Positions 3,137 through 29,051 of a stretch of 55,794 bases of DNA are shown in pieces. The position numbers and the translations under genes were made by a program. The first letter of the stretch is position 1; every line of letters starts with the position of its first letter. This DNA comes from a virus, in the IMG/VR virus record IMGVR_UViG_3300045988_029329, positions 1 through 55,794 of that record. One strand, given 5' to 3'. The notes under the pieces are model-generated. The model was not told where the DNA came from. It did no database searches and worked only from the letters and a program-made list of their open reading frames with translations.

Positions 3137-3505
3137 ATGAAGTTTACCCGAAACACGGTCAACGGAATCAACGATACCATCCTTGCTTCCAATGACTACA
3201 CCGCCATTCCCTTTACCGTGACCGAAACTGCTGCGGTTAAGGCTGGCTATCCCATGACGTTGGCTGGCAAGAAAGCTGTTGCTGCTGGCGAGACTGGTTC
3301 TAAGACGATCAACGCTGACGGCATCCTACTGTATGACGTTGACCCGGAAGAGAACCCCAACGCCGCCCTGCTGATTCGTGGTGTTATCGACACCAAGAAG
3401 GCAGCGGCAAGTTCCAGCTTCACCTTTGACGCTGACGCAATCAAGGCACTCAAGACTGCCGTTCCTGGCATCTTCTGCCGTGACAACATCAGCGTGAACG
3501 CTTAA
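3137..3505 (+). CDS. head decoration protein (lambda gpD-like)
   Basis: 122 aa, directly upstream of an E-type capsid gene. The pattern PMTLAG..ADGILLYDV..IRGVID resembles gpD PLMLDT..AVGILAV. Confidence 0.5.
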   Translation: MKFTRNTVNGINDTILASNDYTAIPFTVTETAAVKAGYPMTLAGKKAVAAGETGSKTINADGILLYDVDPEENPNAALLIRGVIDTKKAAASSSFTFDADAIKALKTAVPGIFCRDNISVNA

Positions 3506-3521
3506 TAGGAGGTAAAACAAC

Positions 3522-23030: not shown

Positions 23031-23669
23031 ATGGGCAAGACTAATTTTCGCCGCATGATGATGCTCCGTGACCACGATAAAGACCGTGAGCCGGAACGTG
23101 ACCGCCTTGAGGAAGAGCGTGACCGCAGGGAGCGTGAGCTGGAACGCCGTCTGCGCAAGCTGGAATATGGCAACGACCGCTATCCTTACTATCCGCAGGA
23201 GGAGAACCGCTACATCGACCCCTACCCTATCCCCCGCTACCCTGACGTAGAGTATGGGCGCAGAATGCCGCAAATTGGCTTTTCGCAGAACGGAGACTGG
23301 GACAAGCGGGCTGGGCAGTATGAGCATGGCGGTGCTGACAGCCGTTCCATCAAGATGCCACGCAAGCACCTCACCCACGATGAAGCAGAGGAATGGTGCG
23401 ACAGCATGGTGAATGCTGACGGCACGAAGGGCTGTCACTGGACGCTGGAACAGACACAGGACGTTGCCAAGCAGCGCAACATCACCTGTGACCCGAACGA
23501 TTTCTGGGCTGTCATGAACATGATGTACTCGGATTATTGTCAGGTCGCAAAACGCCAGTCCGTTGACACTCCGGGCTTCTACGCTGACATGGCAAAGGCG
23601 TTCCTTGAGGACACGGACGCTGTGGACGGCAAGGCGTATGCCTACTGGGACTGCGTGACAGATAAATAA
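23031..23669 (+). CDS. hypothetical protein (charged R/E/D N-terminus, Tyr/Pro region, conserved-looking C-terminal domain)
   Basis: GGAGG RBS. 212 aa. Confidence 0.5.
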   Translation: MGKTNFRRMMMLRDHDKDREPERDRLEEERDRRERELERRLRKLEYGNDRYPYYPQEENRYIDPYPIPRYPDVEYGRRMPQIGFSQNGDWDKRAGQYEHGGADSRSIKMPRKHLTHDEAEEWCDSMVNADGTKGCHWTLEQTQDVAKQRNITCDPNDFWAVMNMMYSDYCQVAKRQSVDTPGFYADMAKAFLEDTDAVDGKAYAYWDCVTDK

Positions 23670-23670
23670 A

Positions 23671-23720
23671 GTAATCCCCTGCATAGTTTAATCGGCTGTG
23701 CAGGGGATTACTTTCTATTA
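23671..23720. terminator. bidirectional rho-independent terminator
   Basis: 13-bp stem GTAATCCCCTGCA/TGCAGGGGATTAC, flanked by T-runs on both strands, between convergent genes. Confidence 0.7.
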
Positions 23721-23732
23721 TAATGATTAGTT

Positions 23733-23981
23733 TTACTCAAGCCAATTGATGAAATATCCGTTGTACTTAAACTCTTTTGCCTCATTCGCGGCCTTAATCA
23801 GATTCTTCGCAAAAGCAATCGCCTCATCCGGCGACAATGTTCGTCCAGGAAAACATACTTTGCTACCGATTGAAGTGTCAATTCCATCTCCACTTCTGCA
23901 AATTTCAATGCCGCTTCCGTAAGATTTCCTTCTCTGCTTCAAGTCTTCTATATTGTAATCAGAATATTTCACTTTGTCCAT
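23733..23981 (-). CDS. hypothetical small protein (low-GC cassette)
   Basis: AAGGAGGAG RBS. 82 aa. AT-rich codon usage. Confidence 0.5.
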   Translation of the reverse strand: MDKVKYSDYNIEDLKQRRKSYGSGIEICRSGDGIDTSIGSKVCFPGRTLSPDEAIAFAKNLIKAANEAKEFKYNGYFINWLE

Positions 23982-24078
23982 GTGAACTCTCCTCCTTAAA
24001 TTTCAGCTTTTAGCTTGTTCCTCTTTTCTCCTGCATCTGTGTGTCTTGTATGTGCGCATTTTTCTCCCCTCACATAAA

Positions 24079-24348
24079 TTATTTTTCTTTGGTGTAGTAC
24101 AATTCCATATCTGCCTTGTACATATCAAGTTGTCTTTTGCTATCCATAAGTGTGTTAAAACTAATTCCCGCCGCAAAAGATACGGCGATGGACAAAATCA
24201 AGTGTGCTGCAACCCATTTACCAGCAAAGATAAAAGGAATCTGAATTGCTATGGCAAAAGCATCGAACAAAAGAACGTAAATGCCACGTTTAACCATTTT
24301 CTGTAATCGGATAATACTTCCTTCGTAAAATTCCTTCGACCTCATCAT
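24079..24348 (-). CDS. small 2-TM membrane protein (low-GC cassette)
   Basis: 89 aa. Two hydrophobic segments, GIYVLLFDAFAIAIQIPFIFA and AAHLILSIAVSFAAGISF. Starts 3 nt after the AAA+ stop. Confidence 0.55.
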   Translation of the reverse strand: MMRSKEFYEGSIIRLQKMVKRGIYVLLFDAFAIAIQIPFIFAGKWVAAHLILSIAVSFAAGISFNTLMDSKRQLDMYKADMELYYTKEK

Positions 24349-24351
24349 ACG

Positions 24352-25233
24352 TCAATCCTCCAAGAAATCCTCTTGATTCAGAACTTGATTTACAATTCGT
24401 TCTGTACATTCTTTGATAACAGTAGATGCGGGGACGCAATCTTCATAAGCTATGTTTTCATATTGTGCTCCTGCATATTCAAAGAACCTTTTGGAAAGTA
24501 TTTCTGCATCCGCACGGCACAACGTCTTTAATTCGTATTGCAACGGAAATCTTCTTGCAAGTGCAGGGTCAAGCCTATCAAATCGGTTTGTCGTTCCAAT
24601 AATAATGACATTGTTCGGTAATCTATCCATTTCCTGCATAATCGCAATAACCACACGGTTCATTTCCCCAACGTCATCTTTTTGCCCACGAGCCATTCCG
24701 ACCGCATCTATTTCATCAAAACAAAGAACGCAAGGAGCAGTCCTCACATAATCAAAAATTCTTGCAAGGTTAGATTGTGTTTGTCCTAAGTGCGAATCAA
24801 CTAGACTTGAAAATTGAATCCTCAAAAACGGAAGTTTTGCTTTATGTGCGATATACCTAGCCAGCATGGTTTTTCCGCATCCGCTTTGCCCATAAAGCAT
24901 CAATGCTGGCAAATAAGGAATTCCCATTTCATTTAATTTTTCAGATGCTCGATAAATAGCAACGATTTTCTGCGTTATACTTTTTTCTTCGTTCCTAAGA
25001 AGAAATCTTGCTTCTGGAAATTCTTCTGTATCCTCTGCGATCAAAAGATGCTGTAAGTTATATGGCACTTCAATAAATTCTCTTTTGCTTTCCAACTTGC
25101 GAAACATATTTTCTTTGAACTGTTCATCTTTTTTGGATGATATGGAATTCAAAATGATTTTAACAGCTTTTTGCGCGTTTCGCATATCACCATCGCAAAC
25201 AAATCGAATAAGGTGTCGTTCACTATCATTCAT
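24352..25233 (-). CDS. classic-clade AAA+ ATPase
   Basis: Walker A GQSGCGKT, Walker B VLCFDEID, sensor-1 IIIGTTN, and Arg-finger region DRLDPALARRF. 293 aa. Confidence 0.85.
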   Translation of the reverse strand: MNDSERHLIRFVCDGDMRNAQKAVKIILNSISSKKDEQFKENMFRKLESKREFIEVPYNLQHLLIAEDTEEFPEARFLLRNEEKSITQKIVAIYRASEKLNEMGIPYLPALMLYGQSGCGKTMLARYIAHKAKLPFLRIQFSSLVDSHLGQTQSNLARIFDYVRTAPCVLCFDEIDAVGMARGQKDDVGEMNRVVIAIMQEMDRLPNNVIIIGTTNRFDRLDPALARRFPLQYELKTLCRADAEILSKRFFEYAGAQYENIAYEDCVPASTVIKECTERIVNQVLNQEDFLED

Positions 25234-25798
25234 CTAAGAAATCCTCCAACTCAATCTTCCCCTCTGCCGCAGCAGCAGCCAGAGCGTACACATACTGCCC
25301 GATGGTCATTCCGTGCCGCCTTGCTTCACGGTTGATGTACTTGCGTTCTTCCCCACTCATAAGGATGGTAATGCGCTTAGAACGCTTTCCGTCACCGCTT
25401 GCAACGCCCTGATGCGATTCCGGCATCGGAATTTTTTTCTTTGTCAAGCCAGCTTCAGCAAGTGCGCCGGGAACATTGCCCTGTTCGATAAGACGTTGAA
25501 CTTCCTTTGCCTGTTTCAGCTTCTTCAGCTTACCTTCGCATAACACGGCATCATTCGGCTGGCTTTCGCTGCCTTTGGCTTGCTTCGGCTTAATATCGCT
25601 TAATTCTGCTTCACTCGGCCGTGCATGGCTGTCTGTGGCTTCACTGGGCTTAACTTGCTCCTGTTCGGCATTATTCGGCTTTGTTTGGCTTACTTCTTCT
25701 TCCTTTGGCTCACTTCGGCTTAATGTCTGTTCCGAAAAAACAGGCTGGAAGTCAAACCCACCCAACAAGCCGGATGTTTTTTTGCTGGTTGACTTCAT
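25226..25798 (-). CDS. ribbon-helix-helix protein with disordered repeat-rich N-terminus (candidate ParG-like centromere-binding protein or antitoxin-like regulator)
   Basis: The C-terminus KRSKRITILMSGEERKYINREARRHGMTIGQYVYALAA fits the RHH pattern. ATGA-coupled in the parA operon. Confidence 0.5.
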   Translation of the reverse strand: MKSTSKKTSGLLGGFDFQPVFSEQTLSRSEPKEEEVSQTKPNNAEQEQVKPSEATDSHARPSEAELSDIKPKQAKGSESQPNDAVLCEGKLKKLKQAKEVQRLIEQGNVPGALAEAGLTKKKIPMPESHQGVASGDGKRSKRITILMSGEERKYINREARRHGMTIGQYVYALAAAAAEGKIELEDFLDE

Positions 25799-26322
25799 TC
25801 TACATCAGCCTCCTCATAATCCGAATCTTCAAAGGATGGAGCTTCTGGCAACGGCATCCAATGCGTCGCTCCGAGATTATTACACCAATCTGTTTTCCAA
25901 ATAGGTTTTCCACCGTCTTCTGGATAGAAGTAACACTGTGCGATATCTGTTCCTGTCAACGGCGATGCAACGAGGACGGGGTTGCTTTCAAGTTCTCCAT
26001 TTACATCCACCATTTCGGGGTAGTGGTCGCTCACTCTAATCCATTCCTTGCTCCATAACCATTTTTCCTTGAAATACTGTACATCTTTCTTGTACTGCTC
26101 TTTATCAATGTCGCCACTTCTGTACCAATCACAGCTATGCAAAACACAGAGCAAATCGTACAGAAGCATACTCAAATCTTTGTCTCCAAGCGGATTTTCT
26201 TTTCGTGCAATAATCGAAAGCTCTTTTACCCGTTCATCTGCAAGGTCATAATCTGGGTAACAGTTCTGATAAATAGTATTTGCAAGGCTGTCATTTTGAC
26301 AATCCCAATATCCACCACTCAT
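25795..26322 (-). CDS. hypothetical protein with C-terminal DUF551-like domain
   Basis: 175 aa. WIRVSDHYPE ... ATHWMPLPEAP matches the motif of four other paralogues in this genome. Confidence 0.5.
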   Translation of the reverse strand: MSGGYWDCQNDSLANTIYQNCYPDYDLADERVKELSIIARKENPLGDKDLSMLLYDLLCVLHSCDWYRSGDIDKEQYKKDVQYFKEKWLWSKEWIRVSDHYPEMVDVNGELESNPVLVASPLTGTDIAQCYFYPEDGGKPIWKTDWCNNLGATHWMPLPEAPSFEDSDYEEADVE

Positions 26323-27104: not shown

Positions 27105-27344
27105 TTATTCTTCGGGTTCATCAGGGAGCGGCATCCAATGGGTTACATGATATAACACATTATCATCAATCAGTTGCGTTTCACTATTGTTTCCATAGAA
27201 CGCATCCGTCAACACATCATCTGTATACCATTTTTCGCCTTTGAAGTCACCATAATAACCGAAAGTAACGCCCATCACTTTATCATAAATGATAATCTGA
27301 ATGTACTTGTCTGGCATCTTATCTTTTACGCTAATCCAACCCAT
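27105..27344 (-). CDS. DUF551-like protein
   Basis: AGGAG RBS. MGWISVKDKMPDK ... VTHWMPLPDEPEE. Confidence 0.5.
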   Translation of the reverse strand: MGWISVKDKMPDKYIQIIIYDKVMGVTFGYYGDFKGEKWYTDDVLTDAFYGNNSETQLIDDNVLYHVTHWMPLPDEPEE

Positions 27345-27387
27345 TCTCGCTCCTTTCTGCATCATCTGCTTAATGCGCTACATCCGA

Positions 27388-28482
27388 TTACTTTAAGAGG
27401 CTATCGTCAAACGTAGCGTAATCATCAAGGTCTGCATCTTTCAAAATTGAGTACATATAAGCGCCGGGGTCTTTTTCAATCCTATCAAGTCGCTCACTGA
27501 CAAGAATCTTGTATGCATTCTCAATGATGTTCACAACAGCTTCTTTTTTCTTGTTAGGCTTGATGTTCGGATACTTCTCCGGCAATCTCTTTGCCACCAG
27601 CTTTGCGGTCAAGATACACTGGCTTTTAGACATCTCCGGCGCAATAGATGCCCAATCCACATTCTCGTATGCGCCACTGCGGGGCTTTCTGGCAGGTCGT
27701 TGGCTCTTTGGAACATCTTTTAACTCTACGCTTTCGACCTCGTTAGCTTCCACGTCTATGACTGGCTCATTAGACTTGAAAGCTATATTGAACTTCACAG
27801 CAACCGCATTGCGACCTCTCATGACCTTGTCGTATTCAACGCACAGGTCTGATACTTCGTTTATTTCAGCTACCGCAATATCAATGACACGCCGCCTAAG
27901 ATGCTTGAACTCTTGATAGCTAGGTTCTCTTGCGCCAAGTTGTTCCCTTAATCTATCCAACGTAATTTCGGGCTGGCTCACGCCACGTCCGATGAACTCT
28001 CGGAGAATTGAATACAGCAAAATGCTATACTGTGATTTCATATTCGCTGTGTAGCGCAAGCGATACTTGACATATCCACGCTCTGCAATGTCGAAGAAAA
28101 CAGGTTGTAGAAGTGGGTTACAGCACAATGACACAGTAATATTCATCAAACTAGGTTCAAAATTTACAGTTGCTCTGCTGAACAGGGGATACAGGTCAAA
28201 CGAGCCTGAACCGTCACCTCTAGGAACTTCAACAGAGTTGTCGATGAAATGCTTAACCTGTGCTTTCAAATTCCTAGAGTTGATTTTTAACCCTAAAAAT
28301 TCGCAATATTCTTGTAACGTAAACTGAACCGTTGAAGTTTCGGGGTCTCTCGGATTGATACGGCTAAGATACACTTCAAGCAGCCGAAGCTCTCCTGCTG
28401 TATAGTCAGTGAACTTTGCCCAAACAAGCTGTCTGCTTTTTTCAACCAAGTTCCCGCCTTTAATATCAGACAATCTTATCAC
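27388..28482 (-). CDS. plasmid-type replication initiator (Rep_3/RepB-like)
   Basis: 364 aa. The N-terminus LVEKSRQLVWAKFTDYTAGELRLLEVYLSRI...FTLQEYCEFLGLK fits the Rep_3 pattern. Iterons lie directly upstream. Confidence 0.7.
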   Translation of the reverse strand: MIRLSDIKGGNLVEKSRQLVWAKFTDYTAGELRLLEVYLSRINPRDPETSTVQFTLQEYCEFLGLKINSRNLKAQVKHFIDNSVEVPRGDGSGSFDLYPLFSRATVNFEPSLMNITVSLCCNPLLQPVFFDIAERGYVKYRLRYTANMKSQYSILLYSILREFIGRGVSQPEITLDRLREQLGAREPSYQEFKHLRRRVIDIAVAEINEVSDLCVEYDKVMRGRNAVAVKFNIAFKSNEPVIDVEANEVESVELKDVPKSQRPARKPRSGAYENVDWASIAPEMSKSQCILTAKLVAKRLPEKYPNIKPNKKKEAVVNIIENAYKILVSERLDRIEKDPGAYMYSILKDADLDDYATFDDSLLK

Positions 28483-28513: not shown

Positions 28514-28629
28514 AGGTGTACAAGTCAATAGTTGACGTACACCTGTTTCCACTTTTTGTACACCTAACCGTCCACATTTCGTACACCCATTTCCACAATT
28601 TGTACACCTATATCCATTTTTTGTACACC
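28514..28629. repeat. iteron array: inverted pair AGGTGTAC/GTACACCT plus five direct GTACACC repeats at 21-23-bp spacing
   Basis: GTACACC at 28537, 28558, 28581, 28602 and 28623. An AT-rich stretch follows at 28630-28760. Confidence 0.75.
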
Positions 28630-28821
28630 TCTTTACATTATATAAAACAAGACTATTAACAAGATTATAAAATAACTTCTACTAATAGCAGAAGAAGAAA
28701 ATTTTCCACAAAATCTTTTCTTTCTCTCTTAAAAAGTGGAAAACACAAAGCGAATATCGCTAAATAAACAGATGTTCAACATCCGAAAGGTTAAAACGCT
28801 TAACGGTTAGGTTTACCTAAC

Positions 28822-29007
28822 GTGTACAAAAAGTGGATGAAAAAATTTTAAGTCAATGTTATGGGGGACGGATTGACGAACCACTCAATCGCAAACAATA
28901 AATTAACGCTAGCTCGTTGTTTATCCCGCACGAATGCTGTCGATTTACAGCCTATGGTGGACGGAATGACAAGGCAAATTTGCCCGATAGGTGTACAAAA
29001 AGTGGAT
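28822..29007. repeat. two inverted copies of the long iteron (GTGTACAAAAAGTGGATGAA)
   Basis: Copies at 28822-28838 and 28990-29007 are the reverse complement of TCCACTTTTTGTACACC at 28549-28565. Confidence 0.7.
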
Positions 29008-29051
29008 GAACGTGGACAAAATGTTCCTTAAAAACTTCGATAATTCGACAA

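Follow-up and report, generated by a model that had tools for sequence, protein, structure and literature searches.

The toxin-antitoxin system IetAS (pTiC58) was first described as a plasmid-stabilising system with a subtilase toxin and was later described as an abortive-infection defence system. In this system the AAA+ ATPase IetA is the antitoxin and IetS is the toxin, and ietA mutants proved uncloneable (PMC13069673); these roles are those given by Yamamoto 2009, as that work is cited in PMC13069673 and PMC8562856. A mycoplasma AAA-ATPase/subtilase pair homologous to IetAS is a working toxin-antitoxin (PMC8562856), and defence by IetAS proceeds by abortive infection, with a phage protein as the trigger (bioRxiv 10.1101/2022.08.27.505566). 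Here we analyse three co-oriented genes at the distal end of the rep-parA operon of a virus, IMG/VR record IMGVR_UViG_3300045988_029329 ('the window': that is, the whole stretch of 55,794 nucleotides (nt) that was analysed). The genes encode an AAA+ ATPase of 293 amino acids (aa), an 89-aa membrane protein with two predicted transmembrane segments (2-TM), and an 82-aa soluble protein (Table 1). The initial annotation read them as a single candidate defence or addiction cassette of a kind with no named relative, possibly regulated by the upstream gene for a 190-aa ribbon-helix-helix (RHH) protein. The results indicate that the three genes are independent modules, that their tight spacing comes from a repeated junction sequence, and that the motor of the ATPase is, as judged by sequence, closest to IetA.

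The components of a multi-gene defence or addiction operon are expected to co-occur, and the three genes do not do so, whether assessed by assortment, by neighbours, or by ranges. In an unbiased sample of 78 complete slots in related phage genomes, picked on the RHH gene alone, 41 % contain the ATPase gene, 40 % the 2-TM gene, and 5 % the 82-aa gene; 28 slots carry none of the three, and there is no significant association (Fisher p=0.16 and p=0.64). Of 80 viral loci with a 96-100 % identical ATPase, 27 have neither of the other two genes, 26 have the 2-TM gene only, 16 have the 82-aa gene only, and 11 have both. When loci were instead selected on the 2-TM gene (93 distinct loci), 39 (42 %) had an intact ATPase gene, which equals the base rate. 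The slot is populated by more than 15 interchangeable small modules. One relative has the order RHH gene, 131-aa gene, disrupted ATPase gene, unrelated 92-aa gene (L001); a second has the order RHH gene, 131-aa gene, 2-TM gene, with the ATPase gene absent (L002); and a third has the order RHH gene, ATPase gene, four other genes (L009). For the ATPase gene, the ratio of nonsynonymous to synonymous diversity (pN/pS) is 0.089 where the 2-TM gene is present and 0.096 where it is absent, and pN/pS for intact 2-TM copies in ATPase-less loci is 0.19. Intact 2-TM genes without an intact ATPase gene number 46 distinct copies (ATPase gene absent for 44, partial for 2). The ATPase family is broad in mobile elements of Clostridia, but the 2-TM gene occurs in a single phage lineage only. 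We conclude, with high confidence, that the three genes are independent single-gene modules in a recombination-prone slot, and not one system.

The alternative is that the ATPase, the 2-TM protein, and the 82-aa protein constitute one abortive-infection, exclusion, or post-segregational-killing system, in which the membrane protein would be the effector or toxin and the ATPase the sensor or antidote. This alternative draws on the co-orientation and tight packing of the genes, on the observation that the 2-TM gene, where both are present, usually directly follows the ATPase gene, and on the precedent of IetA for an AAA+ protein as antitoxin (PMC13069673). It also draws on nonsense alleles, which are found in 10/93 distinct copies of the 2-TM gene, as for a costly gene (compared with 4/133 for parA, 1/94 for the ATPase gene, 0/122 for the RHH gene, and 0/133 for the convergent DUF7841 gene), and which in a first sample were enriched in loci without an intact ATPase gene (6/16, vs. 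2/38 with; p=0.006). However, upon doubling of the sample by addition of 2-TM-selected loci, the enrichment fell to p=0.18 (8/54 without an intact ATPase gene vs. 2/39 with), and this result, together with the 46 intact 2-TM copies that lack an intact ATPase gene, excludes a strict dependency of a 2-TM toxin on an ATPase antidote. The statistical independence of presence and absence, the equal constraint on the ATPase gene without the 2-TM gene, the difference between the two ranges, the rarity of the 82-aa gene and its occurrence elsewhere in the genome, and the generic junction that produces the tight spacing all argue in the same direction, and we consider one system very unlikely. Dropping the false three-gene system averts a wrong entry in defence catalogues.

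The junction is a ~22-nt module-boundary sequence, (GAGTT)GGAGGATTTCTTrGAkGAwTGA, that repeats at gene borders of the accessory array. The two copies in the window, at the border between the RHH and ATPase genes (GGAGGATTTCTTAGATGAATGA) and at the border between the ATPase and 2-TM genes (AGAGGATTTCTTGGAGGATTGA), agree at 18/22 nt. Across relatives the junction is found at five kinds of border: RHH to ATPase, ATPase to 2-TM, RHH to 131-aa, 131-aa to 2-TM (where it is non-coding), and 131-aa to ATPase; in the relatives with the 131-aa gene described above, copies lie at ~7930-7960 of L001 and at ~3490-3520 and ~3905-3935 of L002. In 160 loci there are 325 copies on the gene strand vs. 23 on the other strand, with 1-4 per locus, and the copy at the ATPase 3' end is followed by any of at least four genes. 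The junction supplies a Shine-Dalgarno (SD) sequence and a stop codon and, at the RHH-ATPase border, an overlapping ATG as well. It also codes for the C-terminal residues of two unrelated proteins: EDFLDE of the RHH protein and EDFLED of the ATPase. In the family alignment, the EDFLED tail is present only in two phage-lineage copies (that of the window and P0003), and members from other elements are without it.

Because the junction carries an SD sequence and stop and start codons, it accounts for both the 8-nt overlap of the ATPase start with the stop of the RHH gene (ATGAATGA) and the 3-nt gap between the ATPase stop and the 2-TM ATG; and because direct repeats flank the ATPase module, it explains the precise gain and loss of that module. 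The overlap and the gap are exactly as first noted, as are the three co-oriented open reading frames (ORFs), their sizes, and the AAA+ motifs; the reading of this arrangement as a single defence or addiction cassette gives way, since the genes assort independently and owe their spacing to a generic junction. The junction is probably a recombination linker causing mosaicism. In lambdoid and dairy phages, short conserved gene-border junctions that promote module exchange have been described. Like the linkers of mosaic temperate phages, the sequence here is conserved, over ~22 nt, at successive borders with varied genes on either side; unlike them, it doubles as an SD sequence and stop/start overlap and as C-terminal codons. 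For phage accessory arrays, this means that tight spacing or overlap can be a by-product of recombination junctions, with no functional coupling needed.

The ATPase and 2-TM ORFs are clearly real genes, and the 82-aa ORF probably is one as well. An SD sequence precedes each of the three (a good one for the 82-aa gene), and all show purifying selection in the phage lineage: the ATPase gene has pN/pS of 0.09, the 2-TM gene 0.23, and the 82-aa gene, from a small sample, 0.51. The guanine-plus-cytosine (GC) content is 0.379 for the ATPase gene, 0.370 for the 2-TM gene, and 0.402 for the 82-aa gene. The window as a whole has 0.492, parA has 0.529, and the convergent DUF7841 gene has 0.567. The low GC content seen by hand is therefore real, with computed values of 37-40 % slightly above the hand counts of 32-37 %, and the computed profile of the three genes (0.370-0.402) does differ from the flanks. 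Synonymous diversity (pS) is 0.16 for the ATPase gene and 0.33 for parA, that is, about half, and this, together with the low GC content, points to recent spread of the ATPase module. Separate acquisition of the accessory block, as initially proposed, is supported by low GC content, by patchy presence in near-identical phages, by a synonymous diversity half that of parA, and by flanking direct repeats.

The 293-aa protein has the features of a classical-clade AAA+ motor. Its translation contains GQSGCGKT, VLCFDEID, GTTN, and DPALARRF; its match to Pfam AAA (PF00004) has E=6.8e-32 and 111 bits (cutoff 21.2); and it has Walker A and Walker B motifs, sensor 1, arginine fingers (second region of homology), and a pore-loop-like S-H/Y-L-G sequence. 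The catalytic motifs are invariant in the 20 family members aligned. The closest Protein Data Bank (PDB) sequences are Rix7 and p97, and an AlphaFold2 (AF2) model (predicted local distance difference test, pLDDT, 83) gives top Foldseek matches to FtsH, p97, and Rpt, with E about 1e-13. The defining features of the classical clade (catalytic motifs and an alpha/beta core with a helical lid) are all present. Like FtsH, p97/Cdc48, Rpt/PAN, and Rix7, the ATPase has the fold, all catalytic motifs, the second region of homology, and S-H/Y-L-G; unlike them, it is a single AAA module with no fused protease or other domain, has a unique small N-terminal domain (N-domain), and is encoded by mobile elements. 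From sequence and model together, the protein is very probably an active stand-alone classical-clade AAA+ remodeller.

The best defence-database match of the ATPase is to IetA profiles (PADLOC E=1.5e-55, 187 bits), and hhalign comparison with six canonical IetA proteins gives a probability of 99.9 over residues 41-250 (201 columns, 35 % identity). With NCBIfam NF042959 (IteA) the ATPase scores 179.9 bits, vs. a curated cutoff of 510, and the next family scores 92 bits. The nearest named relative of the ATPase, as far as the motor sequence indicates, is IetA, and the initial view that the locus had no named relative is revised in this respect. Like IetA, the ATPase has a motor and a preceding linker that are homologous in the two proteins and is borne by mobile elements, and its place in a plasmid-maintenance operon echoes the plasmid stability conferred by IetAS; unlike IetA, it is shorter (293 aa vs. 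338-370 aa), its C-terminal region is unaligned, its N-domain is not detectably related, and it has no IetS. No IetS was found in the window, either by tblastn with two IetS proteins (best E 0.63) or by Pfam, Peptidase_S8 being absent from 50 window ORFs, and no Peptidase_S8 was found among 129 ORFs within 3.5 kb of ATPase homologues in 19 other contexts. The same procedure, in positive controls, recovered IetA+IetS pairs in two loci (L035 and L053). On score, on the IetS neighbour, and on the N-domain, the ATPase appears to fall outside IetAS; the tie to a known addiction or defence system holds for the motor and does not extend to membership in IetAS.

The absence of IetS from the window and the IetA-like motor might be taken to mean that the ATPase is a decaying orphan IetA, left behind after IetS was lost from a canonical IetAS. 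Four observations speak against decay: strong purifying selection (pN/pS 0.09), conservation of the family at ~300 aa, the consistent absence of IetS from the 19 contexts even though the method found true IetA+IetS pairs, and, relative to canonical IetA proteins of 338-347 aa, a different N-domain and a shorter C-terminus. We regard decay as largely refuted and highly improbable. Of 94 distinct ATPase copies, 5 are partial and 1 has a nonsense codon. In GenBank MT836731 (L001 7151-7928, UNVERIFIED), the ATPase is represented by two ORFs, of 90 aa and 171 aa, and lacks about residues 85-114; this copy is either a pseudogene or an assembly error.

The N-domain is predicted to comprise a three-helix bundle with C13-x-G15-D16, a linker with E55-x-P57, and a long helix leading into the motor; C13, D16, E55, and P57 are invariant, and G15 is nearly so. 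The isolated N-domain (residues 1-100) gives no PADLOC IetA match at E<=1, whereas canonical IetA N-domains give E 1e-6 to 3e-9, and it gives no match to phrog_3757 in PHROGs, whereas canonical IetA N-domains do match. No structural analogue was found for the AF2 model of the domain (pLDDT 72.6; best Foldseek PDB E-value 1.8). The description of this domain as unrecognised thus holds for PADLOC, PHROG, and structural matches alike. Homology to the IetA N-domain had been a candidate and was ruled out by the isolated-domain PADLOC and PHROG scans, in which the controls worked.

Homologues of the ATPase number 651, of which the 120 listed are 57-97 % identical and essentially full length; full-length relatives at 49-70 % identity occur in Oscillospiraceae, Christensenella, and other Clostridia. 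The homologues are located in serine-recombinase islands, in integrative and conjugative elements (ICEs) with sortase and pilin genes, in prophage early regions, and in conjugative regions with a type IV secretion system (T4SS) coupling protein, SSB, orphan methylases, and a giant methylase-helicase. When all ORFs within 3.5 kb were clustered, no neighbour family was common to the 19 distinct ATPase contexts, and bulk Pfam scans of ATPase neighbourhoods yielded no conserved partner; the conservation of gene neighbourhood on which a cassette would depend was thus not observed. The 129 neighbour ORFs in these contexts include 10 orphan DNA methyltransferases, 4 PAPS reductases, 2 each of SSB, DUF3102, and PcfJ, and single instances of VapE, AAA_24, DUF927, and AntA. 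These neighbourhoods (L003-L030) look like anti-restriction and establishment regions of ICEs and prophages. Homologues of the ATPase were never found in a housekeeping context, an outcome that the initial annotation had considered. We conclude that the ATPase is a member of a conserved family of ~300-aa proteins whose genes occur, without a constant partner, in phages and conjugative elements from gut Clostridia, each being a one-gene module in an accessory, early, leading-type, or establishment region of its mobile element. The family, well conserved and uncharacterised, is one of lone AAA+ remodellers. By type, the methyltransferases within 3.5 kb of ATPase homologues are N6_N4 (four), C5 (three), and D12 (three), and the methylase-helicase near one homologue (L011) has 2426 aa.

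Taking these results together, we favour, by a modest degree, the reading that the locus is the variable accessory tail of a rep-parA-(RHH adaptor) operon, made up of three unrelated modules, with the ATPase acting as a neutraliser in trans. According to this reading, modules would enter, leave, and swap by recombination at the repeated ~22-nt junction. The ATPase, presumably hexameric, would use ATP to pull on or unfold a protein; its three-helix N-domain presumably would pick a different target, encoded elsewhere in the host or by a rival element; and the ATPase would thereby switch off or neutralise a toxin or immune effector during establishment or residence of the element in the cell.

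Taken separately, the role of the ATPase as a trans-acting neutraliser, of a counter-defence or orphan-antitoxin-like kind, is a tentative assignment made by analogy. We rank it first among the roles considered because IetA and TRIP13/Cap6 are negative regulators and because the neighbours of the family are anti-restriction and establishment genes. In the cyclic-oligonucleotide-based anti-phage signalling system (CBASS), TRIP13/Cap6 is an AAA+ remodeller that switches off HORMA-activated signalling. The ATPase resembles TRIP13/Cap6 as a second-tier, weak PADLOC match (E about 1e-11) and differs from it in that this similarity is far below that to IetA and in that there are no HORMA or CD-NTase genes near the ATPase gene. 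It is conceivable, though doubtful, that the ~300-aa family as a whole is a previously undescribed class of trans-acting counter-defence or orphan-antitoxin unfoldases, carried beside orphan methyltransferases on gut-clostridial phages, phage-plasmids, and conjugative elements and directed, during establishment, against a host or rival toxin or immune effector.

Several points weigh against the neutraliser assignment. The role of the ATPase is assigned by analogy. The label 'IetA-like' describes the motor only, because an AAA protein of Bacteroidota in a housekeeping context scores as highly: the PADLOC IetA profile gives 209 bits to this 249-aa protein, encoded beside an ABC-F gene in a non-IetAS context. 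The N-domain shows no similarity to the IetA N-domain, and recognition of an IetS-type toxin in particular is therefore unsupported. An anti-defence gene is no better suited to a lysogeny-type maintenance operon than a prophage gene for defence or exclusion would be. Lastly, the more frequent occurrence of 2-TM nonsense alleles where the ATPase gene is absent or broken is a weak trend that would point to a loose functional link where a genome carries both genes.

The possibility that the ATPase by itself is a prophage defence or superinfection-exclusion gene, dismantling a protein of an incoming phage or plasmid in the plasmid-prophage state, bears directly on the operon context. The position of the gene, at the 3' end of the rep-parA operon, predicts transcription during carriage, variable presence is typical of defence cargo, the best defence-database matches are to IetA, and the gene is carried by phages and ICEs only. 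However, the ATPase has no effector domain, and in ICEs and prophages it sits among establishment and anti-restriction genes (orphan methylases, SSB). To our knowledge, AAA+ remodellers in immune systems act as regulators and not as effectors (IetA as an antitoxin; TRIP13/Cap6), which also counts against a defence role. We consider such a role possible, with a likelihood somewhat below that of trans-acting neutralisation.

The operon context also raises the possibility that the ATPase is a maintenance or replication accessory that remodels a protein of the element itself, for example by converting Rep dimers to monomers or by turnover of ParA and the RHH adaptor. Host chaperones and ClpA remodel P1 RepA in this manner. 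Consistent with such an activity, the ATPase gene shares an operon with rep and parA, it directly follows and overlaps the RHH gene in 21/33 relatives that carry it, and SSB and replication genes are often near it in other elements. However, of the phages that have these Rep, ParA, and RHH genes, 59 % are without the ATPase gene, homologues in ICEs and prophages have no Rep3 or RHH190 homologue nearby, and the 131-aa gene often separates the RHH gene from the ATPase gene. A maintenance function is accordingly improbable, and more so than a defence function. Trans-acting neutralisation remains, among these, the reading that we prefer for the ATPase.

For annotation, the relationship to IetA has a practical consequence: profile-based defence annotation will call these lone ATPases 'IetA' without any surrounding system. 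As a separate observation, AAA proteins of 236-255 aa from Bacteroidota (drawn from L032-L070: Marinifilum, Ancylomarina, Chitinophaga, and others) score about 209 bits with the PADLOC IetA profile and have no IetS nearby; their contexts are conserved and apparently chromosomal, and they are a source of false 'IetA' defence calls.

Table 1. Coordinates of the features of the locus and its operon in the window.
Feature	Coordinates	Strand	Basis or content
Stand-alone AAA+ ATPase, 293 aa	24352-25233	-	IetA-like classical-clade motor and family-specific N-domain
N-domain of ATPase, residues 1-104	24922-25233	-	conserved across 20 family members
Walker A of ATPase, GQSGCGKT, residues 115-122	24868-24891	-	sequence; invariant in family alignment
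Walker B of ATPase, VLCFDE, residues 169-174	24712-24729	-	sequence; invariant in family alignment
2-TM membrane protein, 89 aa	24079-24348	-	hydropathy profile
Soluble protein, 82 aa	23733-23981	-	
Junction copy 1 (GGAGGATTTCTTAGATGAATGA)	25226-25247	-	RHH gene end and ATPase start
Junction copy 2 (AGAGGATTTCTTGGAGGATTGA)	24352-24373	-	ATPase end and SD for 2-TM gene
190-aa core gene, disordered N-terminal part, RHH-like C-terminal fold	25226-25798	-	Pfam NikA-like
DUF551 gene, 175 aa, between parA and RHH gene	25795-26322	-	
parA, small Walker-type partition ATPase, 256 aa, no N-terminal helix-turn-helix	26319-27089	-	Pfam AAA_31 E=4e-54; PHROG ParA-like
DUF551 gene, 86 aa, between rep and parA	27105-27365	-	
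rep, Rep3-family initiator, operon head	27388-28482	-	Pfam Rep3_N and Rep3_C; iterons upstream
Bidirectional terminator hairpin, 20-bp stem	23669-23713	.	between operon end and convergent DUF7841 gene

The 190-aa RHH gene had been proposed as a regulator of the cassette. It is instead a constant core gene next to parA, present in 79/80 ATPase-selected loci with pN/pS of 0.17, and found in essentially every genome of the lineage; it lies outside the accessory block and is most likely a partition adaptor of the ParG/omega type, the disordered tail of which would probably stimulate ParA. As in Type Ib partition (ParG/omega), a small ParA is followed in the operon by a protein that is constant in the lineage, has a disordered tail at its N-terminus, and is RHH-like at its C-terminus. 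Unlike in Type Ib partition, the RHH match is below the Pfam cutoff (NikA-like, E=6e-5, 23.6 bits vs. a 27-bit cutoff), so that the RHH assignment is weakly supported; no centromere was identified, none having been specifically sought; and accessory genes lie between parA and the RHH gene (the DUF551 gene in the window, a 68-aa gene in L009). Comparison of the 190-aa protein with PDB by sequence gave nothing meaningful. Its N-terminal part is long, of low complexity, acidic, and lysine-rich, with repeated KP..EA/SE motifs. The 86-aa type of DUF551 gene, which in the window lies between rep and parA, is a shuffled module too, and occurs downstream of the ATPase gene in many relatives.

A search of 1.84 billion clusters gave only 11 representatives of the 82-aa protein, and in relatives its gene is also found elsewhere, for example between rep and parA. 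It is a rare independent accessory module, from a tiny family, with a dispensable function. The 2-TM gene is likewise accessory and dispensable, and it is restricted to this phage lineage: of its 432 homologues, the 120 listed are all 85-94 % identical, and many are on contigs of ~55-60 kb. The hydrophobic segments of the 2-TM protein, from hydropathy, span about residues 22-43 and 46-66. Neither the 2-TM protein nor the 82-aa protein has a significant match in Pfam, PHROGs, PADLOC, or NCBIfam; a Pfam BTP match of the 2-TM protein (E=0.008, below cutoff) was dismissed as hydrophobic noise, and the label 'Wzz-like' that the Joint Genome Institute (JGI) attaches to some 2-TM homologues was judged spurious.

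Premature stops in the 2-TM gene fall at at least seven independent positions (codons 10, 16, 24, 36, 45, 61, and 77), which suggests that the gene is costly or under fluctuating selection and is often knocked out. Stop-codon recoding was rejected as an explanation, because the codons affected are those for G, Q, Y, and W and are scattered along the gene. The nonsense homologues are those of L079, L101, L136, L158, L172, L176, L207, L224, L263, and L308, and two of the alleles, W45* and G61*, each occur in more than one background.

The window is a complete siphovirus-type genome, with an SPP1-like portal, a major capsid protein, a GH25 lysin, a DnaB helicase, ERF, SSB, a C5 methylase, and a small resolvase, and it also carries an iteron-type Rep3 replicon and parA. 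The rep-parA operon is closed by the terminator listed in Table 1. At the other end, upstream of rep, iteron-like repeats sit in a stretch of 36 % GC that is likely the origin of the Rep3 replicon. The repeats, of ~22 bp (GTACACCynTTTCCACwwTTT), are both direct and inverted and lie at 28536-28631, 28822-28841, and 28988-29024. The window encodes a small serine recombinase, recognised by its resolvase N-terminal domain (E=2e-36), and no tyrosine integrase was detected there; a serine recombinase without a tyrosine integrase is consistent with multimer resolution in an extrachromosomal phage-plasmid.

The region has no match in plasmid databases, and a literature search on this phage-plasmid lineage, on solo IetA-like ATPases, and on leading-region AAA proteins returned nothing specific. 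The nearest relatives in GenBank are unannotated human-faecal 'Bacteriophage sp.' contigs. In IMG/VR, the RHH gene is carried by 454 contigs, the ATPase gene by 180, and the 2-TM gene by 137, and the contigs listed for these genes are mostly of 55-60 kb. We conclude that the lineage is an abundant ~57-kb human-gut phage-plasmid. Since it is common in human gut viromes, as the contigs with the RHH gene attest, it provides a natural panel for presence and absence of the ATPase gene.

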